Below the pieces are notes generated by a model. It had not been told where the DNA came from. It saw only the letters and a program-made list of their open reading frames with translations, and searched no databases. A stretch of 64,000 nucleotides of DNA from a virus. Taxonomy: Duplodnaviria; Heunggongvirae; Uroviricota; Caudoviricetes. Of this stretch, positions 3,461-62,342 are shown in pieces (position 1 is the first letter of the stretch; every line of letters begins with the position of its first letter). The stretch lies in IMG/VR virus record IMGVR_UViG_3300017987_005500, one strand, 5' to 3'. A program made the translations under genes and the position numbers.

Positions 3461-3472
3461 GGGGAATGAGCA

Positions 3473-15592: not shown

Positions 15593-16028
15593 TATGGAAG
15601 ATCCAAGAGTTGAGAAACTTCAAGAGTTAGTTAGGAAAATGAACTCATTGATTTCCCCAATGAGCTATCATGATACATTAAAAGATTTAAGAACAAAACC
15701 TGCCGGTGAAGTGTTTAAAGGAAATGCAACAAAATGTATCATTCCATGGAAAAAGGGAGCTCAATTAGTACAAATTCCTATTTGTAATAGGATGGGAATG
15801 ATAGATCCTCAAATGATAGAGTTTGGTAAAAAGATGGTAAATAAAATGAGATCAGTGAGTCCTCAAGATGATAGTGGTGGAGCTGATATAATCATTGCCA
15901 AATTAGATAAATTGCATAAAAAGTATAGCAAAGATATTCCAAAACCATCTGATAGAGCTGCCCAACATGGACAAGTTACAAAATTCACAAATAAAATACT
16001 AAAGAATATTAAAGGACATTTAACGTAA
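15534..16028 (+). CDS. Hypothetical basic protein coupled to RNAP beta' (likely start MEDP at 15594)
   Basis: RBS ggaggg before 15594; TAATG overlap with beta'. Confidence 0.55.
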   Translation: MMIVLMIVHFVMETITRRVDMEDPRVEKLQELVRKMNSLISPMSYHDTLKDLRTKPAGEVFKGNATKCIIPWKKGAQLVQIPICNRMGMIDPQMIEFGKKMVNKMRSVSPQDDSGGADIIIAKLDKLHKKYSKDIPKPSDRAAQHGQVTKFTNKILKNIKGHLT

Positions 16029-44540: not shown

Positions 44541-45233
44541 TTGAAATTATGTGAATGTGGTTGTGGGAATGAAGTTTCTAATGATAAAAATAGATTTTTG
44601 AAAGGTCATAATGGTAAAAATAATAAAGGAAGAAAATGGTCTGAAGAATCTAAAAAACAATTTAATGATATAGATAATATTATATCTAGATTTGAAAGTA
44701 AAATTGAAATTGATAAAAATACAGGTTGTTGGGAATGGATAGGTGGAAAATGTCAAGGATATGGTGGGTTTAGTTGTTGCATAAAAGGAAAATATAAAAC
44801 ATATCCTGCTCACAGATTTAGTTATATGATGTATATAGGAGAAATTCCAGATGGACTTCAAATTCTTCATGAATGTAATAATAAAAGTTGTGTGAATCCA
44901 GATCATATATATGCAGGTACACATCAAGATAACATGAGAGATTTAAGAAATGCTGGAACACTTTCAGGAAAAAATAATCCAAATTATGGAAAAATTTCAT
45001 CTAAAGAAAAAAAAGAAAAAATTAAAAATGGAGTTAAAAAATGGATTTCAAATAATCCTGATTTCAAACCAGAAGAATGGACAAGTAAAGAATGGATAAT
45101 CACTAAACCAAATGGTGATGAATTAATTATTAAAAATTTAACTAAATATTGTAGAGATAATGATATCAATCTAACTAGTTGTTCTAAGGGATATTATATT
45201 AAAGATAATGGATGGAAGGTAGAAAGATTATGA
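44541..45233 (+). CDS. Free-standing HNH homing endonuclease
   Basis: LCECGCG...RFLKGHN, GCWEW.G, AHRFSY, ILHECNNKSCVNPDH..AGT..DN; TTG start with AGGAGGG RBS. Confidence 0.88.
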   Translation: MKLCECGCGNEVSNDKNRFLKGHNGKNNKGRKWSEESKKQFNDIDNIISRFESKIEIDKNTGCWEWIGGKCQGYGGFSCCIKGKYKTYPAHRFSYMMYIGEIPDGLQILHECNNKSCVNPDHIYAGTHQDNMRDLRNAGTLSGKNNPNYGKISSKEKKEKIKNGVKKWISNNPDFKPEEWTSKEWIITKPNGDELIIKNLTKYCRDNDINLTSCSKGYYIKDNGWKVERL

Positions 45234-46255
45234 ATAAAATTCATATAGTTAACTTATTAGTAACAAGAAAATGCAATCTTAGGTGCTCATATTGTGGTAT
45301 AGTAAGAAATATGAAGACATTACCAAAAACATATCCAAAGATGAAACATTATTATGATAACGAAATGAGCACTAAATTAATTTTAAATTTTCTTGAAAAA
45401 CTTAAAAACCATAATCCCGACGCATTTGTAATTATTTACGGAGGTGAGCCAATATTGCGCTCAGATTTATTTGAAATTGTGCAATATTGCAATGATCTTA
45501 AATTAGGTTATACAATTATAAGCAATAATACAATTGAACTTCAGGATAAACTTGACGACTTATTAAATACTGTACATGTTGCGGGTTATACTGCCTCAAT
45601 AGATCCACTTATTATATCTGATTCAACTGACGTTGATCGTAGAGTTAAAAGCGAACAAGGTCTTGAAAGATTACTTCAATATAAGTATATAATTAAAGAT
45701 CTTGTTGCTGAGATTACAGTTGATAAAAATAATGTTCCATATTTATATGACCTTGTTAAAAAGTTATCAGATTTGGGAATTAATAGTGATATTACATTCA
45801 TAGATACAGCTAAGAGTCCTTATTATGATTTTTCAAATATAAATGATCCAAATCTTTTGATTAAAGACACAATTGAAGTAAAGAAAATATTTGACCGAAT
45901 TATTAAAGATAATCTAGATGTACATATGGCGAAGAGTTTATTACCCAAAATAGTTGAAGCTCTTCCATCTAAATTAGACTGTAAAATGGAAAAAGATATT
46001 AATACAATATGTGTTGATGCTGATGGGACAATGAGACTTTGTCTTCGGATAAAAGGAACGTCAACACCAAGAGTAGAAATTGACAAATTATTTGCACAGA
46101 ATGGAAAATTGGATCCATTCTTTATAGACTCAATTAAAACTGACAAACAAAACTATTGTCGCTTATGTAATCATACATGTTATATTATGGGAGACCTTAT
46201 ATCCAAAGGGGTGAGTTCTTCAGAATTAGTACATGAGGACAAGAGAGGAGACTAA
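45212..46255 (+). CDS. Radical SAM protein with Twitch/SPASM-like C-terminus
   Basis: CNLRCSYC, GGEP, SID; C-terminal C..ICVDADG..LC...CRLCNHTC. Confidence 0.85.
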   Translation: MEGRKIMNKIHIVNLLVTRKCNLRCSYCGIVRNMKTLPKTYPKMKHYYDNEMSTKLILNFLEKLKNHNPDAFVIIYGGEPILRSDLFEIVQYCNDLKLGYTIISNNTIELQDKLDDLLNTVHVAGYTASIDPLIISDSTDVDRRVKSEQGLERLLQYKYIIKDLVAEITVDKNNVPYLYDLVKKLSDLGINSDITFIDTAKSPYYDFSNINDPNLLIKDTIEVKKIFDRIIKDNLDVHMAKSLLPKIVEALPSKLDCKMEKDINTICVDADGTMRLCLRIKGTSTPRVEIDKLFAQNGKLDPFFIDSIKTDKQNYCRLCNHTCYIMGDLISKGVSSSELVHEDKRGD

Positions 46256-46580
46256 AATGGAAGATGCTGGTATAATTGACAATGCTATGACATTTTTAGA
46301 AAAATTGAGAGATCCTGACGTTGAATTTGTACAAGTTAAGTTTACTAAGAAAGATGGTTCTGAAAGACTTATGAAATGTACATTAAACTTTGACAAAATA
46401 CCAAGGACAGATCAGCCCAAAAGTGTTAATTTACCAAGAATATTAAAACTTTTAAAGGATAATGGAATCATTCATGTTTATGATTTAGAGAAACAAGGAT
46501 GGAGAAGTGTCCCTTTTCGGAAAACGGAGTGGTTAATGACAGATGATAATAAACGATATAGGATAAGACCAAGGGGTTAA
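46233..46580 (+). CDS. WYL-like/SH3-fold phage protein (likely start 46257)
   Basis: V.FTKKDGSER.M.CTL..V.DLEK.GWRS. Confidence 0.7.
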   Translation: MRTREETKMEDAGIIDNAMTFLEKLRDPDVEFVQVKFTKKDGSERLMKCTLNFDKIPRTDQPKSVNLPRILKLLKDNGIIHVYDLEKQGWRSVPFRKTEWLMTDDNKRYRIRPRG

Positions 46581-46582
46581 AT

Positions 46583-46930
46583 ATGCTTTCATCAAAAATT
46601 ATCCCTTTAAGTAAAGTTATAATAGACACAACATCAGGAGAGATCTTAATAAAGTCAGACGACACTACTATTACAATTAAAGGAGTCGATTTTGAAAATG
46701 AAGTATCTAAATTTTCAAGAATTGATATTGATAGTGGTAAAGCTATTATTACTGAAACAGAGACTCGTAAATCTCCAGACTTATCTTTATTTATGGTAAA
46801 TATGTATAACATGATTTACGATGAAACACAACAAAATCCGAAATTATCAAAACATTCGGATTTATTATTCAATAATTTACTTAACCGAATGAGACAGGAA
46901 GTTAAAAAATATGGGAAAACTCTTAGATGA
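46583..46930 (+). CDS. Hypothetical protein
   Basis: Coupled ORF. Confidence 0.45.
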   Translation: MLSSKIIPLSKVIIDTTSGEILIKSDDTTITIKGVDFENEVSKFSRIDIDSGKAIITETETRKSPDLSLFMVNMYNMIYDETQQNPKLSKHSDLLFNNLLNRMRQEVKKYGKTLR

Positions 46931-47276
46931 AATTATTGGCGAACTTAAAGGAAAAGATATTGATCAACAAGTTAAAGAAATTTGTGACGAAATAACTGAA
47001 CAAGAAAAGGATTCAATTGAAAATGAAGAATTTCTTCCTGTAGGACCTAATATATTCTTAGCTCTTAGTTGCCCAGGAAGAATTAAAGGTGAAGTTGGAT
47101 TTCTGACTTTAGAAAGAGAACTTGTTGATGAGTATTTAGTTGGGTTTTGGGCAATAACACCTAAAATTCCAAATGATAAATTAAAACGATATAGAACATG
47201 GAGTGTAAAGGAAGTCAATTGTAAGCGAATTATTAGAGCATTCGCTGAGAGACTAAAGTACGTTAGAGGAGAGTAA
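46911..47276 (+). CDS. Hypothetical protein
   Basis: Coupled ORF directly upstream of the E2 gene. Confidence 0.5.
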   Translation: MGKLLDEIIGELKGKDIDQQVKEICDEITEQEKDSIENEEFLPVGPNIFLALSCPGRIKGEVGFLTLERELVDEYLVGFWAITPKIPNDKLKRYRTWSVKEVNCKRIIRAFAERLKYVRGE

Positions 47277-47281
47277 AGGTT

Positions 47282-50200
47282 ATGTCTAGTGAACATATAC
47301 GAGTTGGATTGAAAAATCCAACTGACAAAAATGAAATTGTTATTAATAGACATCATATAAGTGTTGTTAAATCTTCGACTTATTTTAACAATCGTTATAG
47401 AGACGATAAAAAATTAGATAAATGTGCAGTTGAGAGAATTGCGACTTACAATTCACGCACAAAAATTAATAATCTCCTAAGTGTAAATGACTCTGCATCT
47501 GGAGAGATCTTGCCAGCAAATTGTAGATATTTTCATAAAACAGCTAATGGCAGCACCATTCTTGTTATGGAAGAAGCTCCAAGTATAAGAACAATTAAAG
47601 TAAAATTGGATTTACTTTCTGAAGCTGTTGAACTTCAGAAAGTAGGTAAGTTAGAAAAATATGGTTATGTTGAATTCTTAGAGCAAAGTCCACCAGGACC
47701 ATATGAAATAGCTCTATCTTTTCCTTATCTGGTTTATGTAATTGATATTAATAAAGATAAAGGAGTTGAAAAATTCAATGTATATTTTAGAGTTCATCCA
47801 TTAACATCATTAGATGATTATTTGATCAGACCGTTTCTGACGAATATGGATAACTCTGAAGTATGTACAGGTAATATAAAGCTACCAAAGACAAAAGGGC
47901 GACGAACTCTCATTGATATTACTGAGACTTATATTACTGCATGGTGGGAATATGAATTTAATACAGATTTATCTGAAAATTATAATAAGTATGCAGAGAA
48001 GGGACCACCTGAATTACAGGGATATTTAAGTTGGGCATATTTCACACAATACGATCCAATGTTTATATTTTCAATTGACTGGTTAATGTATGATTATAAA
48101 TTAAGCAGTGTAATTGAAAATAAATTAGTGAATCGTGGTCAATCTTCAGGAGAATATACATTTGAGGATCTAATGAAAATGTTGACCACAACATCAAGTG
48201 GACTTCCAACACATGACCGATATACTGATAATATTATAGTTAAAGATAAAATCTTATCAGTTGGTGATGATGTAATTATAGATGATGAGTTGTTATATGT
48301 ATTAGCAATTGATTTGAATAATGCATCTGGTGAAGTAAGTGCTATATTATTTGAGGATGAAAAAGATAATGAGATTGTTAAGAAATATAACGATGAATTG
48401 AGCGAAAAGATATATGCTCATATTAATAATATCTCAGATACTTTTAATCATGGAGGTCATGAATTTAAAGTTAATGATGTTGTCGAAGTTGATATACATA
48501 ACCATGACAGCTCAATGGTTCCTCAATATAGAATATTTAAAGGGTTTCGTAAAACAAGAGATGGGATTGTTGAAGTTAGACTTGGCAAAGCTTATCATAT
48601 TGAGGAATCAATAAATATAAGACCTATTGATATGGATAAACTTACAATTGATGGGGTTAAACCTCAAAAAGATGTTAAGTATTTACTTAAACGATGCGGT
48701 TCATCTGGTTTTCAATTTACCAAGACATTTGTTGCTGAGTTTACTGAGATTAAAGTTTTGAGTTCTGGAAAAATAGCATCTATATTTAGATATACAGATG
48801 AATATGGAGATCGTCAGAAAATTAGTCTTGATATGGTTGGAACTCCATCTTACAATGTATTAGACTTGCCCAATTATTCAACTCCTGAAGTATTTATTGT
48901 TGGACGAAGATTATATACACAAAACTTAAGAGAACCATGGGCATTCTTTACAAACGATAAAAGAGATCCTATTTATTACAATAGGAAAATTCAATCCCAT
49001 AACACAAAGGAACTTATTGAATATATAACCACACAGAAAGATAGACTCTACATCCCAGGTATTCATGAGAATATAGACTTTAAAGTTGGGGATGACATTA
49101 TTGTAGCTAACTGGGAAAACCCATATGAAATGACTATTATTCAAACTATCATTAGATTTGAATATAAAAATGACAGATTTACTGGAGATTTTCATGCAAA
49201 TGTAGTATGTAAAGATCATCAAGGTATTGAAAGATGGTATACAATTGTAGAGATATCCTTAACTGGACCAAAAGTAAATGTAGGACTTATAAGGAAAGCT
49301 TATAGGACATATGATGGAATTGTTGCCGGATCTAAGATCAGAGCGAAAGTTCCAAGACTTGGAATGTTCCCAAAGAAAGATGTAAATAAGATTGTTGCTT
49401 TTATCGAAACTGGAGCAACTCCATTAATGATTTGTAGCAATTTATGTACCTTATGGGCAAATCAAGAAACATATGAAAAGTTTGACATTTTCCCACCGAC
49501 TCATCCAAAGTATTATGGAATGAAAATAGCTCCATATGACACGAAGAAGATTAAACGACAATTTGGAGATTATATCTATCACAAAGAAGATGATAGATTG
49601 TATTACAATGTCATGGAAAATAATCAATATTTGAGAGCTGTTCGAGTAGATCCTTCTTTTAGTGCAAATGATGAACTTTATAAAGGATCTGAGTTGGAAA
49701 ACAAATTAGTATATTATGGTTTTCAACTTCCAAGAATCACTCCGACTGTAAGACAGACTCTTAATTACGAAGCACAATTTCAAACTATTTATGGACCACA
49801 TATTGAAACAACGACAAGTATTGTTCCAACTTCAAGAATGATTCCAATGCCTTATGTAAATACGGAAAGGAATTTTGAATTAGAACTTGAAAGAACTGAA
49901 AATGAGATCATTCAAGTAACTCAACCAACTCCACCAACTCAAGATATTGATGAGGTTGAGGATGAGGATTTTCCTGAAGAAGAATCTGAAAAGACTATGA
50001 ATGATATTGAACAGGTTGCTAGTGGAGCTTCTTCTCCGCCAGCTCCTGCAGGAAGATTTGATAGACTTAGAGAAAGACCTCAAATGACATGGACTAATAC
50101 AGCAACATCTTCAGATTATTATAGAGAATATAATCAAGAGATTATGTTCAGACGATTACATGAACCTCAGGCATTTAGATCTTTTGACAATCCAGAGCAA

Positions 50201-50566
50201 ACCGATGAGGAAATAGAGCAAGCTCAAGCATTACAAGAAGAAGCTCCAGAACAATCTGCTGAAGAAGCTGCTGATGAGATCTGGGAAGAAATGGAGGAAA
50301 GAGGGGAAGTTCAAGCAATACCTGCTCCAGACCGAGAAAATGCAGAAGACATAAATGAAAATCCTGACCGAGAGGAAATGGAAGAAAATGCTGCTGAAGA
50401 AACGACTAATGAAATGGCACAAGATGTATTTGAAGAAACAATAGTTAATGAAGATCCAGACATTGACCATGTTCAACAAGTTGTTGAAAATGACATTCAA
50501 ATATCTATTGAGGATGCCCAACAAGCAATGCATGATGAAATGAGAATGAGAAATTTAGAATCATAA
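47282..50566 (+). CDS. Giant protein with N-terminal prokaryotic E2 (Prok-E2_D/PRTRC protein B-like) domain and acidic disordered tail
   Basis: LP..CR, EEAP..RT, LSFPYLVY, PL.SLDD.L..P.LTN....VCTG (Cys195), WW..FN.DL; sits next to JAB, E1 and Ubl genes. Confidence 0.72.
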   Translation: MSSEHIRVGLKNPTDKNEIVINRHHISVVKSSTYFNNRYRDDKKLDKCAVERIATYNSRTKINNLLSVNDSASGEILPANCRYFHKTANGSTILVMEEAPSIRTIKVKLDLLSEAVELQKVGKLEKYGYVEFLEQSPPGPYEIALSFPYLVYVIDINKDKGVEKFNVYFRVHPLTSLDDYLIRPFLTNMDNSEVCTGNIKLPKTKGRRTLIDITETYITAWWEYEFNTDLSENYNKYAEKGPPELQGYLSWAYFTQYDPMFIFSIDWLMYDYKLSSVIENKLVNRGQSSGEYTFEDLMKMLTTTSSGLPTHDRYTDNIIVKDKILSVGDDVIIDDELLYVLAIDLNNASGEVSAILFEDEKDNEIVKKYNDELSEKIYAHINNISDTFNHGGHEFKVNDVVEVDIHNHDSSMVPQYRIFKGFRKTRDGIVEVRLGKAYHIEESINIRPIDMDKLTIDGVKPQKDVKYLLKRCGSSGFQFTKTFVAEFTEIKVLSSGKIASIFRYTDEYGDRQKISLDMVGTPSYNVLDLPNYSTPEVFIVGRRLYTQNLREPWAFFTNDKRDPIYYNRKIQSHNTKELIEYITTQKDRLYIPGIHENIDFKVGDDIIVANWENPYEMTIIQTIIRFEYKNDRFTGDFHANVVCKDHQGIERWYTIVEISLTGPKVNVGLIRKAYRTYDGIVAGSKIRAKVPRLGMFPKKDVNKIVAFIETGATPLMICSNLCTLWANQETYEKFDIFPPTHPKYYGMKIAPYDTKKIKRQFGDYIYHKEDDRLYYNVMENNQYLRAVRVDPSFSANDELYKGSELENKLVYYGFQLPRITPTVRQTLNYEAQFQTIYGPHIETTTSIVPTSRMIPMPYVNTERNFELELERTENEIIQVTQPTPPTQDIDEVEDEDFPEEESEKTMNDIEQVASGASSPPAPAGRFDRLRERPQMTWTNTATSSDYYREYNQEIMFRRLHEPQAFRSFDNPEQTDEEIEQAQALQEEAPEQSAEEAADEIWEEMEERGEVQAIPAPDRENAEDINENPDREEMEENAAEETTNEMAQDVFEETIVNEDPDIDHVQQVVENDIQISIEDAQQAMHDEMRMRNLES

Positions 50567-50578
50567 GGAGAAAATTAA

Positions 50579-51646
50579 ATGTTTCCAGTATATGTTAATG
50601 ACGGAACCCAAGAAGTACCTGATGCAGATATATTTTACATAATTGGTAAAGATGGAATTTACTTAAGGAAAAAACTTGGAAGACTTGATGCAATTGTCCC
50701 GGTTGATAAAATCTCAACACTTGGAGATGTTGAGACAATGGCGACATATGACTTACCTCCAATTCCTGCATTGCATTTTGCTAAAGTTGTCTCATTCTTT
50801 AAAGTAATATATGAGATGCATAAGAGTGAGGCAATTGTATTGGTACATTTTGATGAGGAAAATGAAAAGTTTAAACTTCAATGTCCACATCAAAAAGTTA
50901 CAAGAGCGGGACTTGATTATATAAGAACTGTAACATTTCCTGGATATACAAAAGTATGTACTATTCATAGTCATTCGGATATGAGTGCTTTTCATTCAGG
51001 AACCGACGATAAAGATGAAGAAGACACAGATGGACTTCATATCACGGTAGGTCATTTAGACTGGGATGATGGAATGTTTGATTTATCAGTTTCTGTAGTC
51101 ATCAATGGAAAAAGATTTATGGTTGAAGCGAGTGATTATATTGAGGGTCTTACACAAGTTGAAGTTGAAGAAACGAAACCTCATTATATAAGCACCTGGT
51201 TTAATTCATATTTAAATGATGATTCAGATCCTGACGTTAAATCGGGTTATAAAATGGGTCTTCCTGATTCAAAAATGACATTCAATAAAAAATGGTTAGA
51301 CTATGTGACCGTTGAGTCTGTAAGACGTGGTTATTATATGGGCAGTGTTCATTATGGAGGTGGTGGACATAGAGTCCATAGTGTTGGAAGTCCTCATTAC
51401 AAAAATAACCAAAAGATAATCGAACATCATTTTGGTGCTGACAACAACGATGAAGATACACATGATTTCAATCCCTGTTTGAATTGTGTATTTTCTGAAC
51501 ATAAACTTCTTCAAGAAGTTGAAGATGAAGATATTGACCCTAATGATGTTGAGGGTTATGACATTGTTGGTGGAGATGAACACAATCACAGACCAATCAC
51601 ACATGAAAATCAATTATTAGACGGAGGTGATGAGCATGGAAATTAA
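50579..51646 (+). CDS. JAB/JAMM metalloprotease (deubiquitinase-like, PRTRC protein A-like)
   Basis: Catalytic E (HKSEA) plus exact HxH-x7-S-x2-D (HSHSDMSAFHSGTD), then DE..G.H...G. Confidence 0.9.
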   Translation: MFPVYVNDGTQEVPDADIFYIIGKDGIYLRKKLGRLDAIVPVDKISTLGDVETMATYDLPPIPALHFAKVVSFFKVIYEMHKSEAIVLVHFDEENEKFKLQCPHQKVTRAGLDYIRTVTFPGYTKVCTIHSHSDMSAFHSGTDDKDEEDTDGLHITVGHLDWDDGMFDLSVSVVINGKRFMVEASDYIEGLTQVEVEETKPHYISTWFNSYLNDDSDPDVKSGYKMGLPDSKMTFNKKWLDYVTVESVRRGYYMGSVHYGGGGHRVHSVGSPHYKNNQKIIEHHFGADNNDEDTHDFNPCLNCVFSEHKLLQEVEDEDIDPNDVEGYDIVGGDEHNHRPITHENQLLDGGDEHGN

Positions 51647-52328
51647 GAATATTAAGATAATTGGTCTTGGTGGAATTGGTTCAATTCTTACTGACAAAAT
51701 TTGCAGATTTATGTCATTTGGTAAATTTGCAAATGATGACTGGACAATCACTTTAATTGATGGTGATGACTACGAACCCAAAAACAGGGAAAGACAAGAT
51801 TTTATATACTTAAAGAACAAAGCATTATCCAAACAAGAAGAGCTTAATGCCAAGTATGGTGTCAATACAGTTCAATATGTTGTTGAGTCTTATATTGATC
51901 AAGACAATGTAAAACAATATATTGGATCAGGCGATTTAGTCTTTATGTGTGTGGATAATCACCAATCCCGTAAATTGATATCCGACCATGCGGGAACGTT
52001 AGACGACGTTATAATTGTTTCTGGAGGAAATGACTACATTGATGGAAATGTGCAAGTATACGGAAGAGAAAATGGAAAAGACATTTCCCCATCATTAACA
52101 TCTTTTCATCCTGAAATAGACAGTCCTGATGATAAACACCCAAGCGATATGTCATGTGAAGAATTGGCAGACTCAGTTCCTCAATTATACTTTGCCAATT
52201 TGACTGCGGCAACAGTTATGTGCTGGGTTTTATATGCTTTGATTCAGGAAAAATTTAACTTTGGAAAACCTGAAGTTTATTTTGACATCGAGATGATGTC
52301 AATTGTAGGCAAGATGAGAGCTGTTTAA
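51627..52328 (+). CDS. ThiF/E1-like activating enzyme
   Basis: IIGLGGIGS, DGD.YE.KN.ERQ, K, CVDN..SR, SGGN; candidate catalytic Cys177 (MSCEE) followed by PQL..AN. Confidence 0.9.
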   Translation: MMSMEIKNIKIIGLGGIGSILTDKICRFMSFGKFANDDWTITLIDGDDYEPKNRERQDFIYLKNKALSKQEELNAKYGVNTVQYVVESYIDQDNVKQYIGSGDLVFMCVDNHQSRKLISDHAGTLDDVIIVSGGNDYIDGNVQVYGRENGKDISPSLTSFHPEIDSPDDKHPSDMSCEELADSVPQLYFANLTAATVMCWVLYALIQEKFNFGKPEVYFDIEMMSIVGKMRAV

Positions 52329-52349
52329 CGAAAAACTATTTAACGAAAA
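52324..52349 (+). repeat. TTTAACGAAAA direct repeat (2 copies) in the Ubl leader
   Basis: Copies at 52324-52334 and 52339-52349. Confidence 0.55.
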
Positions 52350-52360
52350 GGATTAAGAAA

Positions 52361-52888
52361 ATGGCATCAAAGTACACAAAAGAGAAACTGTCCAAACTTA
52401 ACAATGTTGAACTCCGAGAAATTTGCAAGAAAAAGAAAATTCCTGGAATGTCAAAGAAACGTAAAGATGTTATGGTTGACGCAATACTTCTTGCTCATGG
52501 CGGAACGAAAGCAAATGCCAAATCTTCCAAGAAAGCTAAGACTCTCGGAATTGGAAAAGATGGCGAACCAACTAAAAATGCTTCCGAAGCAAAGAAAGAT
52601 GACAAACTTCAAGCTGCAACATTTACTCTTAGCAGTGTTTTGACAAAACCATCTGCAAAATATGGTGATCGAACAACCACGACAATTCGCGTATCATCCG
52701 GCGCAGCTGCAGGCGACTTCCCTGTAACAGGAAGAACAGTATCTTCTGTTAAATCATTCCTCTCTGAAGTTCTCAATATTTCCAAAATGTCTTCTCCAAT
52801 CGTCAATGGAAAACAGGTTGAAGATAATTATGTAATCAAACAAGGTGATGAACTTGAGTTCTTGAAACCAGCAGGTCAGAAAGGGTAA
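52361..52888 (+). CDS. Ubiquitin-like (beta-grasp) protein with N-terminal HeH/Rho-N/SAP-like domain and C-terminal Gly
   Basis: aa 5-45 L.KL...ELREICKK..IPG.SK.RK..MVDAIL; aa 105-175 G.TV..V..L...LNI..VNG..V...Y.IKQGDELEF.K.AGQKG. Confidence 0.82.
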   Translation: MASKYTKEKLSKLNNVELREICKKKKIPGMSKKRKDVMVDAILLAHGGTKANAKSSKKAKTLGIGKDGEPTKNASEAKKDDKLQAATFTLSSVLTKPSAKYGDRTTTTIRVSSGAAAGDFPVTGRTVSSVKSFLSEVLNISKMSSPIVNGKQVEDNYVIKQGDELEFLKPAGQKG

Positions 52889-52908: not shown

Positions 52909-52928
52909 CTATATATATAATTATATGA
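52909..52928 (+). promoter_or_regulatory. Putative promoter, motif class A, copy 4
   Basis: CTATATATATAATTATATGA (last two bases run into the hairpin). Confidence 0.5.
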
Positions 52929-52969
52929 GAAGGGGAATTTTTGTAATATAAAATTTCCCTCTCATATAA
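52921..52969 (+). terminator. Long imperfect inverted repeat after the Ubl gene
   Basis: TTATATGAGAAGGGGAATTTT...AAAATTTCCCTCTCATATAA, about 20-bp stem with one bulge and one G-U pair. Confidence 0.6.
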
Positions 52970-53734: not shown

Positions 53735-54607
53735 ATGCGTATTTGCGTTATTGGGTTGGGCACAATAGGTGGATTCTTTTCACAATTTATTTCTGACTTT
53801 AGAGATGTGACTCATTTGACTATTATAGATTATGATAAAGTTGAAAAGAAAAATCTAAAAAATACTGTTTTCAAGAGAAAACATATTGGGATGTTAAAGA
53901 TTGACGCAGTTGAAGAAATTATCAAAGAAACAAATGAAAAAATTACCCTATCGAAGTATGACATAGAGTTTAATGAAGACAAATTTGATTTAACGCCATA
54001 TGATTATGTGGTTGATTGTAGGGACTTCACTTACAATCGAAGAAAAGTTAACATAAGACTTTATTTTTCAGGAAGACAATTAATTGTAGATTGCAGAAAG
54101 AAAGCGACCTACGAAACTCCAATGGAAGGTTATTATACAACAAAGCTTACAAAAACAGATGTTATTGGAGCTGTTAATGCTGTTGCATTATTATTTAACA
54201 AAAAGATTGTGAATAAATTTATAGACGAAGAGATAGTATATCGTTATGAACTTGATGGATCGAATATCGAAGCATGTGAATATATTGATCAAAGATCAAA
54301 AACTCCTGATATATTATATGAGTCCTGTGATGCGGAGACAAATAAAGGAGAAGACTCTCTAATTAATTTACATGAGAATCTCCAACCAATTTTGGATATG
54401 AATACAAAATCTGCTACGACATTATTCGTTGGACCAAAAGACTTTCCAACTATGGAAAAAGAATTTCCGGCTGGAACATTAACATCGTTTTCAGATGTTA
54501 TAAAATCCCTTGTGAATGCTATTAATTTACCATTTGCATATAATTACTATGTAGTATCTTCAGGGAAAAATGTTATTGAGTTGATTCCTGATACAGGAGC
54601 TGCTTAG
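53735..54607 (+). CDS. Second ThiF/E1-like enzyme with probable C-terminal beta-grasp (Ubl-like) domain
   Basis: VIGLGTIG, IDYDKVE.KNL, G..K, VVDC.D; C-terminus ends VIELIPDTGAA. Confidence 0.78.
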   Translation: MRICVIGLGTIGGFFSQFISDFRDVTHLTIIDYDKVEKKNLKNTVFKRKHIGMLKIDAVEEIIKETNEKITLSKYDIEFNEDKFDLTPYDYVVDCRDFTYNRRKVNIRLYFSGRQLIVDCRKKATYETPMEGYYTTKLTKTDVIGAVNAVALLFNKKIVNKFIDEEIVYRYELDGSNIEACEYIDQRSKTPDILYESCDAETNKGEDSLINLHENLQPILDMNTKSATTLFVGPKDFPTMEKEFPAGTLTSFSDVIKSLVNAINLPFAYNYYVVSSGKNVIELIPDTGAA

Positions 54608-54609
54608 AA

Positions 54610-54951
54610 ATGTTAAAAGAAAATTATTTGGTTAAGAGAAAGATAGTACCCAAAAGGGTATTTTACAGAGGTAGAGAGACAGAAATAGAGGAAATTGATG
54701 ACCATTTAATTATAGAGAAATATAGAGTTGTATTAATAGACGACAAAATTATGAAAATACTTTTAGTTGATTGTCGTCATCCGAATGCTGACCCGTATAC
54801 CGGAGAATATTGCCTACCATACACTCTAAAAGGACTTAAGTTTACAAAAGAGAATCTTAAAAAGATAGACAAATCTCTTGAATTATATAACCTCTTAAAT
54901 TGTTACGAAATTCCATATGGACATTTCAAAGTTGTTGGAGGAAGATTATGA
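54610..54951 (+). CDS. Minimal E2/UBC-like protein
   Basis: HPNADPYTGEYCLP matches the UBC HPN-x7/8-C-L active-site signature (Cys68); starts 2 nt after the E1-like gene. Confidence 0.68.
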   Translation: MLKENYLVKRKIVPKRVFYRGRETEIEEIDDHLIIEKYRVVLIDDKIMKILLVDCRHPNADPYTGEYCLPYTLKGLKFTKENLKKIDKSLELYNLLNCYEIPYGHFKVVGGRL

Positions 54952-55152: not shown

Positions 55153-55371
55153 ATGGAAGGAATCTTAGGAGAGCAAGTACGTAAAGAAATTGAAGCGATT
55201 ATAGATGAAAAGATAAATGATAAAGAAAATAAACTGACAAAAGACGAACTCAATGAGATTGTCTCTTCTTTGATTCCTTCATTAGATGAACTTGTTGCTA
55301 AACAAGTAAAACACCATATGGTTCTTATAGCACAGTATGTGATTGAACAACATGGAGGGAAATCAAATTAA
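55153..55371 (+). CDS. Small helical protein coupled to beta' copy 2
   Basis: RBS aggag; TAATG overlap. Confidence 0.55.
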   Translation: MEGILGEQVRKEIEAIIDEKINDKENKLTKDELNEIVSSLIPSLDELVAKQVKHHMVLIAQYVIEQHGGKSN

Positions 55372-58067
55372 TGCCAAAACTACTGGATCAGAAAAAATTC
55401 TGTGAAGATCTTAAGGAAGTGACATCTCCTAAACCAATAATTAAGAGAAGATTTCATCCTGATGGACTCTTCTCTGAGCAAATCTTTGGTCCTATTAAGA
55501 ATTACACATGTCAATGTGGTACGTATTATGGTGTTTCAAAATCTGGAGGAACTTGTCCAATATGCGAAGTTGACATTTTAAGTTCTGTGGAAAGAAGAAG
55601 AAGGTTTGCAAAAATCACTTTGCCAATTCCAGTTGTAAATCCTTTATTTTATGATTTACTTGTGAATTTAGGTGGAAGTGATTTAAAGAAAGTCATTGAT
55701 GTTCTCATGAAAGATGAGAAAAGTATTTTGTATATGCATGAAGATGAATATGTTGCAACAACCGAAGCTTCTGTAATTCCAGAAGGAGCAGCAAGAATTG
55801 ATCGAATTGAAGCTATTGAAGAATTAATTAAAACATTAGCTACTGGACTTTCAGCTGATGGAATTCCTGAATGGAAAATGGTACTTGATAATATTGATAA
55901 ATTGCTTTTACATGAAATTGTAGTATTACCAGCTGATTTAAGACCTGCTTCAAGAGGAATTGATAGCGCACATCAAAAGGCAGATACCATTAATAGATAT
56001 TATACGCAAATTCTCACAAAACGAGAGATAATGCTTTCAACTATAATTGACATTAAGCAGGATAAATCAATATATTATCAATATTATACTCCTCTACAAA
56101 AAGATGTGAATGAATTATATAATCACATCTTAGAAAAATTATCAAAGAAGGAAGGACTTATACGGGGAAATATATTAGGAAAGAGAATTGATTTCTCTGG
56201 CAGAGCAGTTATAATTCCCGACCCGTTACTTAAACTTGATCATTGCTGTTTACCATATCTTATGGTACTTGAATTATTCAAAATTCAAATAGCAAAGAAG
56301 CTTATTGAAAAGAATAAATTCAAGATGATTAATCAAGCAGTTGACTTTATTGAAAAATGTATGGAACTCGACAGTCCCGTATTATTTGAAATTGCTAAGG
56401 AAGTGATTGAAGGTGAAGTATGTATGTTGAATAGACAACCTTCTTTACACAGACTTAGCATGACTGGATTTTATATTACAATATCTTTAGATAAAGTAAT
56501 TAAAATTCACCCATTATCTTGCTCAGGATTTAATGCAGATTTTGATGGTGATCAAATGGCAGTTTATATTCCAATAACTGAAAAAGCAAAACAAGAAATC
56601 ATTGAAAAATGTTTGATCACAAGAAATTTCATAAATCCATCAAATGGAAGTTTGGCACCAACACCCTCGCAAGATATAATATTAGGAATATATGCTTTAA
56701 CCTCAAATGTTTTCCCCGACTTAAGAAATGAGGTTGAGTTTAAGGGCAAAATGATCACGGAAGGGAGGAAAATATTTAATGCCTGCCTTCCTGATGATTA
56801 TCCGATTATTGACGATGTAGTTATAAGCAAGAGACTTATTAGAATATTAAATGACGTAGAGTCAAAATATATATTCTCAGTTACTACAAAAGTTCTTGAT
56901 CATATTAAAAGAGTTGGATTTAAATATTCAACTCTATTTGGAGCAACTATTTCCTTAGGTCAATGTAAGATTGATGGAGTTAGGAGTTTCAGAGATACGT
57001 TATACGAAAGTGATGAAGTTTCAACACAATTAGAGCAAGTTAATGGTTCTTTAGCTACAAATATGCTTAAAGAAAATTTTGCATATTCATATATGATAGA
57101 GTCAGGATCACGAGGTTCTTGGGATCAAGCACGACAAATACTCCTTACGAGAGGGTTTATTTCAAATTTTAATTTGGAAATATTACCTGAACCAATTAAA
57201 CATTCATTGATTGAAGGGTTGACAAGAAGAGAATTCTTTCTTTCAACTTATGGATGTCGTAAAGGATTATTAGACGTTGCCTTGAATACCGGGACCTCAG
57301 GATACCTTTCTCGAAAACTGATTTTTGCATGTGTAAATGTAGAAATTGATCTTGAATTAGAAGATTGTGGTACTGAAGATTGTTTAGAAGTTTATGTTGA
57401 TGATGCACCAAAAGCAATTCTTCTAATAGATAGATATTATGTAAAAGATGGTGAGTATATTAAGATAACAATGGATAATTTCAAAGATATAGTTGGAGAA
57501 GTTATCAAAATAAGAAGTCCAATATTTTGTAAATCTCCTCAGATATGTCATAAGTGTTATGGGGATTTATGGAAAAAACTTCACAGCAGATATGTTGGAG
57601 TAATTGCTGCTCAATCATTAGGAGAATGTAATACTCAATTAGTTCTTAGGACATTTCATACGTCGGGTGTTGCAACTTCCAAAGGAGATATGCATCAAGA
57701 TGATATTGTTGGGGATTTATCAAATGCCTCAAAGAGTCTTCATGATGTAAAGAATAGCAATTATAAAGATATTGTTGATAAGTTATTTAAGATTTACAAT
57801 ACAAATCGAAAAATTTACCATGTTCATTTTGAATGTGTAGTTTCACAGTTAATGTGGGCAGGGTATCGAAAATGGAGACTCCTTGAAAATAGAGATTCTG
57901 TGCCACCTGAGTATATCTCAGTTCAAACGGTACCGAGTAATGAGAGTTGGTTATTAGGACTCGCATTTTCAAGACCAAGGCAGCATATTGTAAGAGGATT
58001 ATTCAAAGCTGGTAATTATCAAGGTGTTATGGATAAACTATTAACAGGAGAGGATATACATAGATGA
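55371..58067 (+). CDS. rpoC: Multisubunit RNA polymerase beta'-like subunit, copy 2 (putative non-virion RNAP)
   Basis: DGLFSEQIFGP, zinc ribbon CQCG..CPIC, LGKRIDFSGRAVI, LNRQPSLHR, NADFDGDQM, TSGYLSRK, CHKCYG, TQLVLRTFH. Confidence 0.96.
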   Translation: MPKLLDQKKFCEDLKEVTSPKPIIKRRFHPDGLFSEQIFGPIKNYTCQCGTYYGVSKSGGTCPICEVDILSSVERRRRFAKITLPIPVVNPLFYDLLVNLGGSDLKKVIDVLMKDEKSILYMHEDEYVATTEASVIPEGAARIDRIEAIEELIKTLATGLSADGIPEWKMVLDNIDKLLLHEIVVLPADLRPASRGIDSAHQKADTINRYYTQILTKREIMLSTIIDIKQDKSIYYQYYTPLQKDVNELYNHILEKLSKKEGLIRGNILGKRIDFSGRAVIIPDPLLKLDHCCLPYLMVLELFKIQIAKKLIEKNKFKMINQAVDFIEKCMELDSPVLFEIAKEVIEGEVCMLNRQPSLHRLSMTGFYITISLDKVIKIHPLSCSGFNADFDGDQMAVYIPITEKAKQEIIEKCLITRNFINPSNGSLAPTPSQDIILGIYALTSNVFPDLRNEVEFKGKMITEGRKIFNACLPDDYPIIDDVVISKRLIRILNDVESKYIFSVTTKVLDHIKRVGFKYSTLFGATISLGQCKIDGVRSFRDTLYESDEVSTQLEQVNGSLATNMLKENFAYSYMIESGSRGSWDQARQILLTRGFISNFNLEILPEPIKHSLIEGLTRREFFLSTYGCRKGLLDVALNTGTSGYLSRKLIFACVNVEIDLELEDCGTEDCLEVYVDDAPKAILLIDRYYVKDGEYIKITMDNFKDIVGEVIKIRSPIFCKSPQICHKCYGDLWKKLHSRYVGVIAAQSLGECNTQLVLRTFHTSGVATSKGDMHQDDIVGDLSNASKSLHDVKNSNYKDIVDKLFKIYNTNRKIYHVHFECVVSQLMWAGYRKWRLLENRDSVPPEYISVQTVPSNESWLLGLAFSRPRQHIVRGLFKAGNYQGVMDKLLTGEDIHR

Positions 58068-61000
58068 AAGTGATTAACCCAAACTTTGTGCTTGATGAAG
58101 AAAATAATATTTTCAGGATTCGAGAAAATGAATTTGGGTCACTTGAGTCCACAATTCGGGAGATGCTAAAACCGGCCGAAGCGCTTGGATTTAGTGTCCC
58201 CGAGTTCGGGATTCGTGATTCAAGGTTTTCGTCACGAGATCTTGCAAGAACAGTAAAACAGAAATTAGTTATTAAATTAGCTAAGGGAGAACATGTTTTA
58301 GATCTCTCAATGGATATTCCAAAATTGATTGATGGAAATTATATCATCATAAATGGAAAACAGAAGATCCCTCAATTTCAATTATTTGATGTTCCAATTG
58401 TAACTCGTGGTAAAAATATAAAAATAAGAACAAATGTAGCAACTGTCGTAGTTGTCCCTAAGAAAGAAGAACCATATATTCATATTACTTTCTTAGGAAA
58501 AATGGTTCCTTTATCATTAATGTTATTTGCATATTTTGGAATTGAAGAAGTAAATAGAAAATTTAACTTAAGTTCTCAAACACCAGCTGACACAATTCCA
58601 ACAAATATGTATGATAAATTGATATCTGATTTAACAATGTTCTATGCTGAATCAGATGGTTATACTCAAGATGACTTTATCAAAGAAGTGGGAAGAATTT
58701 ATTCTCAGTATAACTCAAAATCAAAAGGTGAAGATGTTATGTACGCCTTAGATTTGATAATGGAAACTGATACAATATCAAAGAAACTCTTTATCACAGA
58801 TACTATATTGGATGAAGTTGTTTATGCAATTGAGCACCCTGACGATTTTGATGACACAGACTTTATCAATAAGAGAATAAGATGTTATGAATATATTCTT
58901 TTATCAAAAATATCCAAATATATATTTGACTTATGTATGTCAAATAGGACTGCGAGACAACCGAAATTTAATGTAAATTCAACAAAGATATTATCAGAGT
59001 GTAATGTATCTGACATTGTCCAATTTGATTTTTCAATAAATCCAGTTGAAGAACTTACAAGACTTTCAAGAACAAGTCTCATAGGTCCGGGTGGTTTTAA
59101 AAGAGAAAATGTTCCAGAGCATCTTAGAGATATTTCAAATAGTATGTTTGGCAGAGTTTGCTCAGTTGATACTCCTGATAGAGATAACTGTGGAATATTA
59201 CAAAACTTAGTACCAAATGTTAAACTTGATGAAAATTTGAAATTCACAGATGAAATATTAGAGAAGCAACCCATTTCAATTCCAGTTGCAATGGTACCTT
59301 TCTCAGAGCATGATGATCAAACCAGACTTCAAATGGCATCATCTCAAATGAGACAATCTGTATTAACAAAAAGTTTTGATTCACCTGATGTATATTCTGG
59401 GAGTGAATGGTTATATTCAAAAGAAACCCAGTTTTTGAAAGCAGCAAAGAAAGATGGTGAAGTTGTTTATACAGATGATAATTATATAATTGTTGTCTAT
59501 GATGATAATGAAGTTGATATAATCAATGTTTCTTATAGAAAGATATATGTAGGAAATATGGATTGGATGAAAATATATGTGAAGCAAGGAGATAAAGTTA
59601 AGAAAAATGATATTCTTGCTGAGAGTATGTTTATGAATGATGGTAAAATCAACTTTGGTCGAAAGTTGTTAACTGCTGTAATTCCTTATTTTGGATATAA
59701 CTATGAGGACGGAATTGTTATATCTGATAGAATAGTTGAGGATGATGTTTTCACTTCAATGCATTATGTTGATTTATCATTTACAATTCCACCAAATAAA
59801 GTTTTATTAAGTTTATCTAATGATGGTGAATATAAACCATTACCTGAAGTTAAAGATCCTGGAGGAGGAAAACCTATAATTCATGATAGGATAGGAGTTG
59901 GAAAACCTTATGCTATAATGAAAGATATTAATTCAGGTATACATTGTTATAGTGTATTTGATGAAGAAATTAAACTGACCGCTAAAAAACAAGTGTTAAT
60001 CTCAGAGGTTAATATTTACCCGAACACTTGGAACACTGAAATGCCTCAATATGACAAATGGGTTAAAGATAAAATTGAAAGTCAAAAGAAAAAGCAAAAA
60101 GACTTTCTTAAAATGTTAAAAGATTATATACCAAAATCTCAAATGAGTAAAATTATAAGAGAGGAAGGACTTAATAAATTCTCTCAAGTTGGAAAATATA
60201 GATATAAGAGAGAAGAGATAAATGGTATTCATATTGAGATGTATGGGATTTTTGAAAGAAAAATAAATCCTGGTGATAAGATTGCAAATCGACATGGTAA
60301 TAAAGGTGTTATTTCAAAGATAATGCCAAGAGAAAAAATGCCAAAACTTCCTGATGGGAGACACGTGGATATTTGTATCAACCCACTTGGTATTATAAGC
60401 AGGATGAATATAGGACAAATATTTGAGTTGCATCTCTCAATGTCCGTAAATGATTTAAGACAAAAGATGTTAGAGTCATTGAAAAATGGCGGAAAAAGAG
60501 AAGACCTTATCAATTATTTCCTTGGTTATATCAAATGCATTGACAATACTGAGAATAATTGGTATACTACACAAATGGTGGAGAAGCTAAAAGATATTGA
60601 AATTGACGAAGATTTCATCAATAACATATTTGTAATTCAACCTCCATTTGAATCAGTGACATTAGAGATGCTTGATCAGGCAATGCAATATACAAATACG
60701 GACTACGATTATAAATTACTTGATCCAATGTCAAAAAGTGAAATATTCAATGATATCGCAGTCGGGTATATATATTTCTTTAAAATGGTCCATATTGCTG
60801 AAAACAGATTAGCAGCAAGAGGAATTGGATCTTACTCAAGAAAGACTTTGCAACCTCTTGGGGGAAGAAGGAATAAAGGTGGGCAGAGATCTGGAGAAAT
60901 GGAAATGGCATGTTTAATAGGTCATGACGCTGCCACAAACTTAAATGAATTTACGACTACGAAGTCAGACTGCATTGATAGGAAAAATAGATATATCAGA

Positions 61001-61120
61001 GCAGAGATTGAGTCTACAGAGTTTGACCCAGATAAAGATGATGATGGATGCAATATTGCTGAGTCAGTTCTCTTATTTGAATCATCTCTAATATGTGTAG
61101 GACTTGATCCAAAGGATTAA
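58064..61120 (+). CDS. rpoB: Multisubunit RNA polymerase beta-like subunit, copy 2
   Basis: GPGG, DTPDRDNCG, PFSEHDDQTRLQMASSQMRQ, GYNYEDG, GDKIANRHGNKG, INPLG...RMNIGQ, GGQRSGEME. Confidence 0.96.
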   Translation: MKVINPNFVLDEENNIFRIRENEFGSLESTIREMLKPAEALGFSVPEFGIRDSRFSSRDLARTVKQKLVIKLAKGEHVLDLSMDIPKLIDGNYIIINGKQKIPQFQLFDVPIVTRGKNIKIRTNVATVVVVPKKEEPYIHITFLGKMVPLSLMLFAYFGIEEVNRKFNLSSQTPADTIPTNMYDKLISDLTMFYAESDGYTQDDFIKEVGRIYSQYNSKSKGEDVMYALDLIMETDTISKKLFITDTILDEVVYAIEHPDDFDDTDFINKRIRCYEYILLSKISKYIFDLCMSNRTARQPKFNVNSTKILSECNVSDIVQFDFSINPVEELTRLSRTSLIGPGGFKRENVPEHLRDISNSMFGRVCSVDTPDRDNCGILQNLVPNVKLDENLKFTDEILEKQPISIPVAMVPFSEHDDQTRLQMASSQMRQSVLTKSFDSPDVYSGSEWLYSKETQFLKAAKKDGEVVYTDDNYIIVVYDDNEVDIINVSYRKIYVGNMDWMKIYVKQGDKVKKNDILAESMFMNDGKINFGRKLLTAVIPYFGYNYEDGIVISDRIVEDDVFTSMHYVDLSFTIPPNKVLLSLSNDGEYKPLPEVKDPGGGKPIIHDRIGVGKPYAIMKDINSGIHCYSVFDEEIKLTAKKQVLISEVNIYPNTWNTEMPQYDKWVKDKIESQKKKQKDFLKMLKDYIPKSQMSKIIREEGLNKFSQVGKYRYKREEINGIHIEMYGIFERKINPGDKIANRHGNKGVISKIMPREKMPKLPDGRHVDICINPLGIISRMNIGQIFELHLSMSVNDLRQKMLESLKNGGKREDLINYFLGYIKCIDNTENNWYTTQMVEKLKDIEIDEDFINNIFVIQPPFESVTLEMLDQAMQYTNTDYDYKLLDPMSKSEIFNDIAVGYIYFFKMVHIAENRLAARGIGSYSRKTLQPLGGRRNKGGQRSGEMEMACLIGHDAATNLNEFTTTKSDCIDRKNRYIRAEIESTEFDPDKDDDGCNIAESVLLFESSLICVGLDPKD

Positions 61121-61122
61121 AT

Positions 61123-61473
61123 ATGAAAAATGACGAGCTAATTATACAAGCCGAGAAAGATATACGATACATATATGAGCAGATGTTAAACATACTTAAG
61201 CGATATGAGCAAAAAGATGTTATTAATGAAATGACATTCTTTATAAATGATGATAATATTGCTTCAGGGTTTGTACGAAAAGGAAATATGACAGATACTT
61301 TATATCAACAAAATATTCAAGCAGTAGGTAAAGACTTAAAACCAAAAATAACAGTGATGGTGAGTAACGGACATATGTCTGTTGCTCACCATCCATCTAA
61401 ATTAACTTCCGTTTTTGTTCAGAAAAATCCAGAAACTGATAAATCGTCGGAAGGGTGGGAGGAAATATGGTAG
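61123..61473 (+). CDS. Hypothetical protein
   Basis: Coupled ORF. Confidence 0.45.
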   Translation: MKNDELIIQAEKDIRYIYEQMLNILKRYEQKDVINEMTFFINDDNIASGFVRKGNMTDTLYQQNIQAVGKDLKPKITVMVSNGHMSVAHHPSKLTSVFVQKNPETDKSSEGWEEIW

Positions 61474-62342
61474 ATGAACTTCCTGATATTCAGGAAAGTA
61501 GACCAATGATCGAAATTCCAATACAACAAGTTGGAGTTGAAAATGTTGAAGTTCCATTTACTCTTCAATCCAGAGATGGATTGGCAGGACTTCATACTCT
61601 CAATGCAAATGTTTCAATGAGGACAGATATTGCTGAAGATGTCAAAGGTGTTTCAATGTCAAGATTTATTGGAACTCTTAGAGATTATTTAGGAAAACCT
61701 CTAAAACATAAAATGATTTATGACATATTAAAAGACATGAAAAAGAATATGGGAACTTCATCTGCATATATGAAATTTGATTTTAAATTTCCTAAGATAA
61801 GACAATCTCCAGCTTCTTTAAATTCATTTCCTTTATTTTATAAATGTAGTTTTGAAGGACAGGTGAGTGAAGTATATCTAGGTCCTGAATTTGTAGACAA
61901 ATTTAAATTTTATCAAGGGGTTACAGTTCAATATGCATCATATTGTCCATGTTCATCTGAATTATGTAATCATTTAAGAGACCAAGCTAAAACTGGGTTT
62001 CCTCATGCACAAAGATCATTTGCTCATGTATTGGTTGAAACTAAAGAACCTAATTATGTCTGGTTGGAAGATGTAATTGATACAGTTGAAAATTCAATTG
62101 CAACATTACCTTATCCAATTATTAAAAGACCTGATGAACAAAAGATTGCTGAAATCGCGGCAAATAATCCAATCTTTGTTGAAGATGCAATAAGACAGAT
62201 AAGTCAAGCATTAAATGACAATGATAAATATTATGATTGGATAGTGAAATGTGTTCATGAGGAAAGTATTCATACAAGTGAGGCAATTGCTATGAACTGG
62301 AAAGGAATTCTCAATGGATTCAACGGAAGCTTTTATCTCTAA
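61455..62342 (+). CDS. folE2: GTP cyclohydrolase FolE2 (type IB); likely start MVDE at 61467
   Basis: LPDIQ, I.QVGV, KGVSMSR, CPCS, HAQRS, KRPDE, NPIFVED.IR, ESIH. Confidence 0.92.
   Translation: MGGNMVDELPDIQESRPMIEIPIQQVGVENVEVPFTLQSRDGLAGLHTLNANVSMRTDIAEDVKGVSMSRFIGTLRDYLGKPLKHKMIYDILKDMKKNMGTSSAYMKFDFKFPKIRQSPASLNSFPLFYKCSFEGQVSEVYLGPEFVDKFKFYQGVTVQYASYCPCSSELCNHLRDQAKTGFPHAQRSFAHVLVETKEPNYVWLEDVIDTVENSIATLPYPIIKRPDEQKIAEIAANNPIFVEDAIRQISQALNDNDKYYDWIVKCVHEESIHTSEAIAMNWKGILNGFNGSFYL

Follow-up and report, generated by a model that had tools for sequence, protein, structure and literature searches.

A four-gene E2-JAB-E1-Ubl operon in an uncultured large phage and its possible role in ubiquitin-like protein conjugation

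The 64,000-nucleotide (nt) stretch of phage DNA analyzed here (the window; IMG/VR virus record IMGVR_UViG_3300017987_005500, Caudoviricetes) carries four adjacent genes that encode an E2 (ubiquitin-conjugating enzyme)-like protein, a JAB metallopeptidase, an E1 (ubiquitin-activating enzyme)-like protein and a ubiquitin-like protein (Ubl). The favored reading, held at a probability of roughly 0.6, is that these genes constitute a phage-owned Ubl conjugation cascade of the PRTRC/Prok-E2_D lineage. A preliminary description of the window had reported the four genes and read them as a conjugation operon. The observation was confirmed and the reading is supported: each of the four assignments withstood independent tests, and gene order and active-site residues are conserved, as described below. 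The carrier is an uncultured phage of ~300 kb, and the contig on which its Ubl gene is recorded measures 308 kb.

The four genes and their active-site residues

The open reading frames (ORFs) are contiguous, share the plus strand and lie exactly where they had been reported. P0001 is an E2-like multidomain protein of 1094 amino acids (47282..50566), P0002 a JAMM/JAB metallopeptidase of 355 amino acids (50579..51646), P0003 a minimal ThiF-type E1 of 233 amino acids with a GTG start (51627..52328) and P0004 the Ubl of 175 amino acids (52361..52888). A 12-nt gap separates P0001 from P0002, the JAB gene runs 20 nt into the E1 gene, and 32 nt lie between the E1 and Ubl genes. RNA folding places a strong plus-strand stem-loop directly 3' of the Ubl stop codon (52921..52969; dG = -28.3 kcal/mol, z = -5.3), and none of 200 shuffled sequences folded as well. 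The stem-loop probably marks the point where the four-gene transcript ends or is processed. It was not called by a simple terminator scan, and a simple sigma-70 promoter scan of the region found promoter-like sites at chance level. No E3 is among the proteins encoded in the operon.

A synteny survey was run on related loci from seven IMG/VR phage contigs of 38-527 kb (L001-L007) and one ENA contig (L008). The E2-JAB-E1-Ubl order is kept in 7/7 IMG/VR contigs at 26-53% protein identity and also in L008. Because the order persists across this divergence and the motif residues are invariant, the motifs do not reflect chance, and the conserved synteny together with the invariant catalytic residues rules out a chance-ORF reading. 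Three of these loci (L006, L007 and L008) contain the core only and lack the flanking genes of this phage, which identifies the four genes as a functional unit.

P0001 had been described as an E2-like protein with an N-x5-VC motif. The motif is present as N188-x5-V-C195, and the assignment was refined in that the E2 part is only the N-terminal ~290 amino acids of a multidomain protein. The E2/UBC-like domain (residues ~58-290, nt ~47453-48151, plus strand) contains Asn188 and Cys195 and is followed by a conserved non-catalytic region (residues ~320-845, nt ~48239-49816, plus strand) and a lineage-specific, probably disordered acidic tail (residues ~860-1094, plus strand). An alignment of 62 diverse E2-like sequences shows N188, C195, P78, R103, P148, W222 and F261 to be invariant. 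The family is large: a profile of the N-terminal 340 residues matched 2713 clusters at 50% identity in a set of 1.84 billion proteins, and 572 of these clusters reached E <= 1e-30. P0001 matches Pfam Prok-E2_D (PF14460) with E-values of 0.012-0.045 and 13.9-15.8 bits, short of the cut-off of 25, and has no match to NCBIfam PRTRC_B. More than half of the 62 family members (33/62) match Prok-E2_D at E <= 0.01 (best 1e-8), and 12/62 match PRTRC_B (best E 4.9e-6).

The AlphaFold2 (AF2) model of the E2 domain has a mean predicted local distance difference test score (pLDDT) of 85.5 and a predicted template modeling (TM) score of 0.72. The top ~35 structural matches are almost all E2, UBC or UEV chains at 7-12% sequence identity; a Foldseek search of the PDB with the model returned nothing at E <= 0.001, and a search of PDB sequences with the domain profile gave chance-level matches only. 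Among ESM Atlas clusters, a viral 'Prok-E2 family D' cluster lies closest (TM 0.56/0.71). In the model, Asn188 and Cys195 lie in the loop that joins the last core strand, which ends at residue 182, to the next helix, which starts at residue 210. This is the strand-helix loop that holds the HPN Asn and catalytic Cys of E2s, although P0001 lacks the HPN His. The E2 assignment thus rests on the model matches together with the matches of family members to Prok-E2_D and PRTRC_B.

The region of residues ~320-845 is shared by a class of ~850-amino acid E2 proteins and contains no invariant Cys or His, and the acidic tail (860-1094) is peculiar to the P0001 of this phage. The middle region had no usable match in the ESM Atlas and no stand-alone homologs among proteins of <= 600 amino acids. 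An hhalign comparison of the region with itself gave one weak repeat pair (~325-370 versus ~600-655, 75% probability), which is suggestive only.

P0004 combines an HeH (Rho-N/SAP-like) head (residues 5-48), a disordered Lys/Ala-rich linker (residues ~49-92) and a beta-grasp domain (residues ~93-175) that ends in A-G-Q-K-G175. The beta-grasp fold and GQKG terminus had been noted before; the N-terminal HeH domain is new. The C-terminal domain of the P0004 model matches ubiquitin, Fubi, MoaD and ThiS-like folds, and its conserved C-terminal Gly is exposed. G172, K174 and G175 are invariant in 65 Ubls, and Glu166 is also an invariant residue. A-G-x-K-G is found in 98/98 Ubl family clusters; 87 of the 98 stop exactly at the Gly, and the other 11 continue for 1-16 residues. 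An end fixed at the Gly, or 1-16 residues beyond it, is the signature of a C-terminally activated modifier and a processing protease.

P0003 contains the ATP motifs and active-site Cys of a ThiF/E1 protein, as had been claimed: GLGGIG, D45, R56-Q57, D110-N111...R115 (within VDNHxxR) and S176-C177. Eight E1s share invariant G13/G15/G16, D45, R56, D110-N111, R115 and C177. The protein matches Pfam ThiF (PF00899) at 9.7e-14 and 51.5 bits, above the cut-off of 28.1. Its best NCBIfam match is PRTRC_ThiF (1.2e-10), at 41.1 bits versus a cut-off of 144.75, and profile matches in the PDB include a ThiF-type protein (9egc), Uba4, MoeB and UBA5. P0003 has no zinc-binding CxxC pairs, UFD domain or rhodanese domain.

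P0002 carries the exact JAMM motif that had been reported, H130-S-H132-x7-S140-x2-D143, with E84 upstream, and E84, H130, H132, S140 and D143 are invariant in eight JABs. The match to Prok-JAB (PF14464; 5.3e-5) is just short of its cut-off of 25 at 23.5 bits, and the match to NCBIfam PRTRC_A (1.7e-11) scores 44 bits versus a cut-off of 101.8. A profile of P0002 also matches Rpn11 weakly across the active site. The JAB domain is flanked by an N-terminal extension and a C-terminal tail that contains CxxC. A conserved F-x-P-C-x-x-C pair lies in the C-terminal third of the protein, where L001 has several more CxxC pairs; these pairs suggest a zinc-ribbon module behind the JAB domain.

Relatives in cultured phages and comparison with known systems

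A megablast search with 20 kb of the window and a tblastn search with P0001 found no match among cultured phages. Cultured relatives were found with hidden Markov models built from the alignments of this analysis. The E2-JAB-E1 order is common to this phage, L001-L008, Vibrio phage D69, Bacillus phage vB_BceM_WH1, Salmonella phage Arash and Ralstonia phage Dina, where it appears as B-A-ThiF. Two of these phages carry head-to-tail Ubl genes. In D69 (L011, OZ195729), a gene at 3331-4122 that is annotated as a hypothetical protein encodes three units, each ending in TGTKG, and the phage also has an E2-like gene, a JAB (7e-27) and an E1 (1e-16). In WH1 (L012, LC597490), a gene at 664-1563 that is annotated 'virion structural protein' encodes five near-identical 57-amino acid units, each ending in AGTKG, and a 15-amino acid cap. 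Two genes past it follow an E2-like protein (1e-9), a JAB (1e-16) and a ThiF (6e-29). Five-unit genes of the WH1 type are also present in phages Edson and KLEB27-3, annotated there as hypothetical. When the Ubl profile was compared with the WH1 protein by hhalign, just the last strand and the tail aligned. The head-to-tail genes resemble those of eukaryotic polyubiquitin and the BubAB precursor, which is processed by a JAB (PMC11601596). E2-like, JAB and E1 genes were found in Arash, and its gp249c was considered as a Ubl and rejected for want of a Gly tail.

The architecture also varies within the metagenomic set. L006, L007 and L008 have two tandem E2-like genes that both encode the Asn and Cys, their Ubl is short and lacks the HeH head, and the L008 core sits between sigma-factor and CsrA genes.

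The preliminary description had placed this gene set mostly in bacteria and on plasmids and integrative and conjugative elements (ICEs). That statement was corrected, since the RefSeq record of Ralstonia phage Dina (NC_055026) already names a complete PRTRC set: E, C, F, B, A and ThiF. The Dina PRTRC_B active site reads 'ICTGNVSLP' where P0001 has 'VCTGNIKLP', and Dina PRTRC_C has a Ubl-like head that ends in VGRKG and then an extension. In hhalign comparisons of the E2 and Ubl profiles with the single Dina sequences, PRTRC_B aligned in register at Cys195 with 18% probability and PRTRC_C in register at Gly175 with 5%.

PRTRC (NCBIfam TIGR03734-03742), found on plasmids, ICEs and genomic islands, is the closest known system. 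The nearest NCBIfam families are PRTRC_A, PRTRC_ThiF and, for members of the E2-like family, PRTRC_B, with every score under its curated cut-off; the B-A-ThiF order corresponds to E2-JAB-E1, and both Ubls have a G-x-K-G tail. The operon differs in that its Ubl gene lies downstream instead of upstream, the Ubl has an HeH head and no residues after the Gly, its E2 is fused to the ~520-amino acid conserved region and acidic tail, and it is carried by a ~300-kb phage. An NCBIfam search with the four proteins and 10 neighboring ORFs (45.2-55.4 kb) found no ParB and no PRTRC D, E or F. The earlier 'PRTRC-type' label therefore holds for nearest kinship and not for membership: because the curated thresholds were missed and ParB and proteins D, E and F were not found, the sequences place the operon as a divergent PRTRC/Prok-E2_D core outside the curated PRTRC families. 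Operon type 6d of Iyer et al. 2006 is the same gene set (PMC1779556). No paper in the searchable literature links PRTRC to ubiquitin or gives PRTRC a function, and none describes a phage E1/E2/JAB/Ubl system; a 2021 survey of jumbo phages does not mention JAB, ThiF or Ubl (PMC7824862).

Bil (BilABCD, types I and II) follows the same four-part logic of Ubl, E2 with catalytic Cys, JAB and E1, and both Bil and this operon are without an E3 (PMC10557695). In the Bil Ubl, 0-9 extra residues come after a conserved Gly and are cut off by the JAB, which is comparable to the Ubl ends seen here (PMC10557695). Bil is host-encoded and anti-phage, in contrast to this phage-encoded operon. Its E2 has a conserved His after the Cys (PMC10557695) and none is conserved after C195, and the type II Bil E1 is multidomain, with inactive and active adenylation domains, whereas P0003 is a single domain of 233 amino acids. 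Bub, operon type 6e of Iyer et al. 2006, has a poly-Ubl and a JAB-E1 fusion. It forms Tyr/Ser oxyesters without a catalytic Cys (PMC11601596), whereas Cys177 and Cys195 are invariant here, and it includes the serine protease BubE, which is absent from this operon.

The eukaryotic ubiquitin system likewise has an Rpn11-like JAMM deubiquitinase and a beta-grasp modifier with a C-terminal Gly, it employs an E1-E2 thioester relay of the kind proposed for the operon, and polyubiquitin is made as head-to-tail precursors with a short C-terminal cap, as in the cultured phage relatives. Compared with it, the operon has a K-G instead of a G-G tail, no HPN His, no E3 and a minimal E1, probably of the homodimer type. 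ThiS/ThiF, MoaD/MoeB and TtuB/TtuC share the E1 adenylation fold and motifs and a beta-grasp carrier with C-terminal Gly. The operon differs in its tail, which is not G-G, in its conserved E2-like partner and in the lack of sulfur-transfer partners among the scanned ORFs.

Proposed cascade and alternative explanations

Read from the protein families, the cascade would begin with P0003, probably a homodimer like MoeB and ThiF, which would adenylate Gly175 of the Ubl and take it up as a thioester on Cys177. The Ubl would then pass to Cys195 of the P0001 E2-like domain, with Asn188 in the role of the HPN Asn, and finally be transferred to lysines of target proteins. Because no E3 is encoded, substrate recognition would fall most plausibly to the conserved ~520-amino acid region that follows the E2 domain, which would make P0001 an E2/adaptor hybrid. 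The JAB would remove the tag, and in relatives with extended or tandem Ubls it may also free the mature Ubl by cutting after the invariant K-G. The earlier proposal that the JAB is a deconjugase for a Ubl already ending in Gly thus fits this phage; for the family it is too narrow, as the extended Ubls and poly-Ubl precursors put processing in the repertoire too. With an HeH head on each tag that is predicted to bind nucleic acid, conjugated targets would be tethered to DNA or RNA. A complex prediction with two E1 copies, the Ubl beta-grasp domain and the E2 domain, in which the E2 domain was scored, returned 0.00, which gives no answer and speaks neither for nor against binding.

The same genes could serve sulfur transfer or adenylation only. 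The Ubl thiocarboxylate would supply sulfur for a cofactor or for tRNA/DNA modification, the JAB would mature the carrier as in CysO/Mec+, PdtH/PdtG and TtuB, and the P0001 Cys would act in a persulfide relay. P0003 scores alike against ThiF, MoeB, Uba4 and TcdA, the beta-grasp of the Ubl has MoaD, ThiS and TtuB among its matches alongside ubiquitin, and two Ubl homologs were auto-named 'molybdopterin converting factor small subunit' by JGI. A syntenic radical S-adenosylmethionine (SAM)/SPASM gene lies upstream, and FolE2 and PTPS/QueD genes in the window point to nucleic acid modification by the phage. Against this explanation, a partner with a predicted UBC fold and invariant Asn...Cys is conserved in every locus, P0003 has no rhodanese domain and the tail is K-G and not G-G. 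A sulfur shuttle would also have little use for poly-Ubl precursors in tandem or for a Ubl fused to an HeH head. Consistent with the preliminary description, no rhodanese, cysteine desulfurase, ThiG, MoaE or TtuA-type partner was found by Pfam among 33 window ORFs, a scan that included all those of >= 150 amino acids from 12.9 to 62.3 kb. The UBC-like partner, K-G tail, Ubl architectures and lack of sulfur-transfer genes in the scanned ORFs weaken the sulfur-carrier explanation, which is considered unlikely.

A role in virion assembly is given an equally low likelihood. Here the Ubl and JAB would play the part of TAPI/TAPK in lambda tail assembly, or the Ubl would be a virion component or decoration, with E1 and E2 attaching it covalently to capsid or tail proteins or being packaged themselves. 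Iyer et al. 2006 linked Ubl and JAB to phage tail assembly (PMC1779556), the WH1 poly-Ubl gene bears its structural annotation (the basis of which could not be traced) and the Arash E1 and E2-like proteins were detected by mass spectrometry of particle preparations (PMC10585845). However, the Arash 'structural proteome' comprises 116 proteins and includes many enzymes, among them ribonucleotide reductases and kinases (PMC10585845), so these data indicate expression and not virion location. The operon also lies among transcription and DNA-metabolism genes instead of structural genes, and it has no PHROG structural matches.

Nor is it probable, to about the same degree, that the operon exists to undo or jam host Ubl immunity (Bil, type II CBASS Cap2/Cap3 or Bub), with the JAB stripping host tags and the phage Ubl, E1 and E2 serving as decoys or modifiers of host enzymes. 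Precedents exist: according to a preprint (bioRxiv 10.1101/2023.09.04.556158) and PMC10557695, host Bil conjugates its Ubl to phage tail fibers and the Bil JAB reverses this, and Borg elements multiply JAMM deSAMPylases, presumably for such interference (PMC12660748). Although a deconjugase alone would suffice for this purpose, every locus retains E1, E2 and Ubl as well, all with intact active sites. PADLOC 2.0.0, in which the presence of Bil models was unverified, gave no match for E2, JAB or Ubl and only generic CBASS 'E1-E2' matches for E1, and thus no detectable similarity to defense-system models beyond the generic E1 fold.

For the conjugation cascade, a role inside infected cells, exerted on proteins associated with DNA or RNA for host takeover or counter-defense, is tentatively preferred over virion assembly, with low confidence. 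The preference rests on the position of the operon among RNA polymerase, SbcC, topoisomerase and homing-endonuclease genes and on the sigma-factor and CsrA neighbors in another phage clade. The broader proposal stands at about even odds: large phages would run their own ubiquitin system, in which an E1-E2 relay attaches the phage Ubl to host or phage proteins, the HeH head tethers targets to nucleic acid, cultured relatives encode poly-Ubl genes, and an E2 fused to its own recognition module needs no E3. To our knowledge, the prokaryotic Ubl conjugation systems demonstrated to date are all host-encoded: Bil, type II CBASS, Bub and archaeal SAMPs. If the proposal is correct, a tag together with its writer and eraser would for the first time have been shown to operate as a self-contained system for a bacterial virus, and a first functional handle on the orphan PRTRC cassette of plasmids and ICEs would be gained. 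Covalent tags written by a phage would add a layer to host takeover or counter-defense, and polyubiquitin-style precursor genes and E2-adaptor fusions would have arisen outside eukaryotes as well. The family is very large in metagenomes and is also present in culturable Bacillus, Vibrio, Salmonella and Ralstonia phages, which makes the proposal directly testable at the bench.

Neighboring genes and the phage window

Six flanking features are common to L001-L005 and this phage: radical-SAM/SPASM, WYL_2, a 121-amino acid ORF, a second E1-like gene, a small HPN...C protein and RNA polymerase beta'. The first three lie directly upstream of the operon (45212-47276) and are syntenic with the cassette in L001-L005. 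The radical-SAM/SPASM protein best matches a PapB-type peptide maturase (1e-16), and WYL_2, a small beta-barrel gene, adjoins an E2-like gene in locus L010. The trio may be co-transcribed and functionally linked to the cassette, for example via small-protein modification.

A second ThiF-like module (53735-54951) begins 0.85 kb downstream of the operon. Its ThiF-like protein has 290 amino acids, matches Pfam ThiF (5e-15) on the N-terminal half only and has a near-invariant C-terminus, ...IPETGAA. The gene 2 nt after it encodes a 113-amino acid protein with invariant H57-P58-N59...C68, an E2-style HPN...C signature; its Atlas model is of low confidence. Both genes are conserved in L001-L005 and absent from L006-L008. 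The pair could be a second Ubl-type pathway or provide an alternative E2 for the Ubl.

The window as a whole has the look of a jumbo phage, with all large ORFs on one strand and a GC content of ~31%, and the carrier is a lytic-type phage. Other genes with PHROG and Pfam support are an SbcC-like gene, topoisomerase II genes and an HNH homing endonuclease (HNH_3/NUMOD3; 44541-45233) located between the SbcC-like and radical-SAM genes. A PTPS/QueD-like gene (33971-35023; 5e-37) and a FolE2 GTP cyclohydrolase gene (61455-62342; 3e-62) suggest a nucleobase pathway of the 7-deazaguanine (preQ0) type, which presumably serves DNA modification. Pfam and PHROG also identify two divergent, unsplit RNA polymerase beta'/beta gene pairs (16028-23139 and 55371-61120), the second of which lies just downstream of the Ubl operon. 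Paired polymerase sets of this kind resemble those of phages with both virion and non-virion RNA polymerases.

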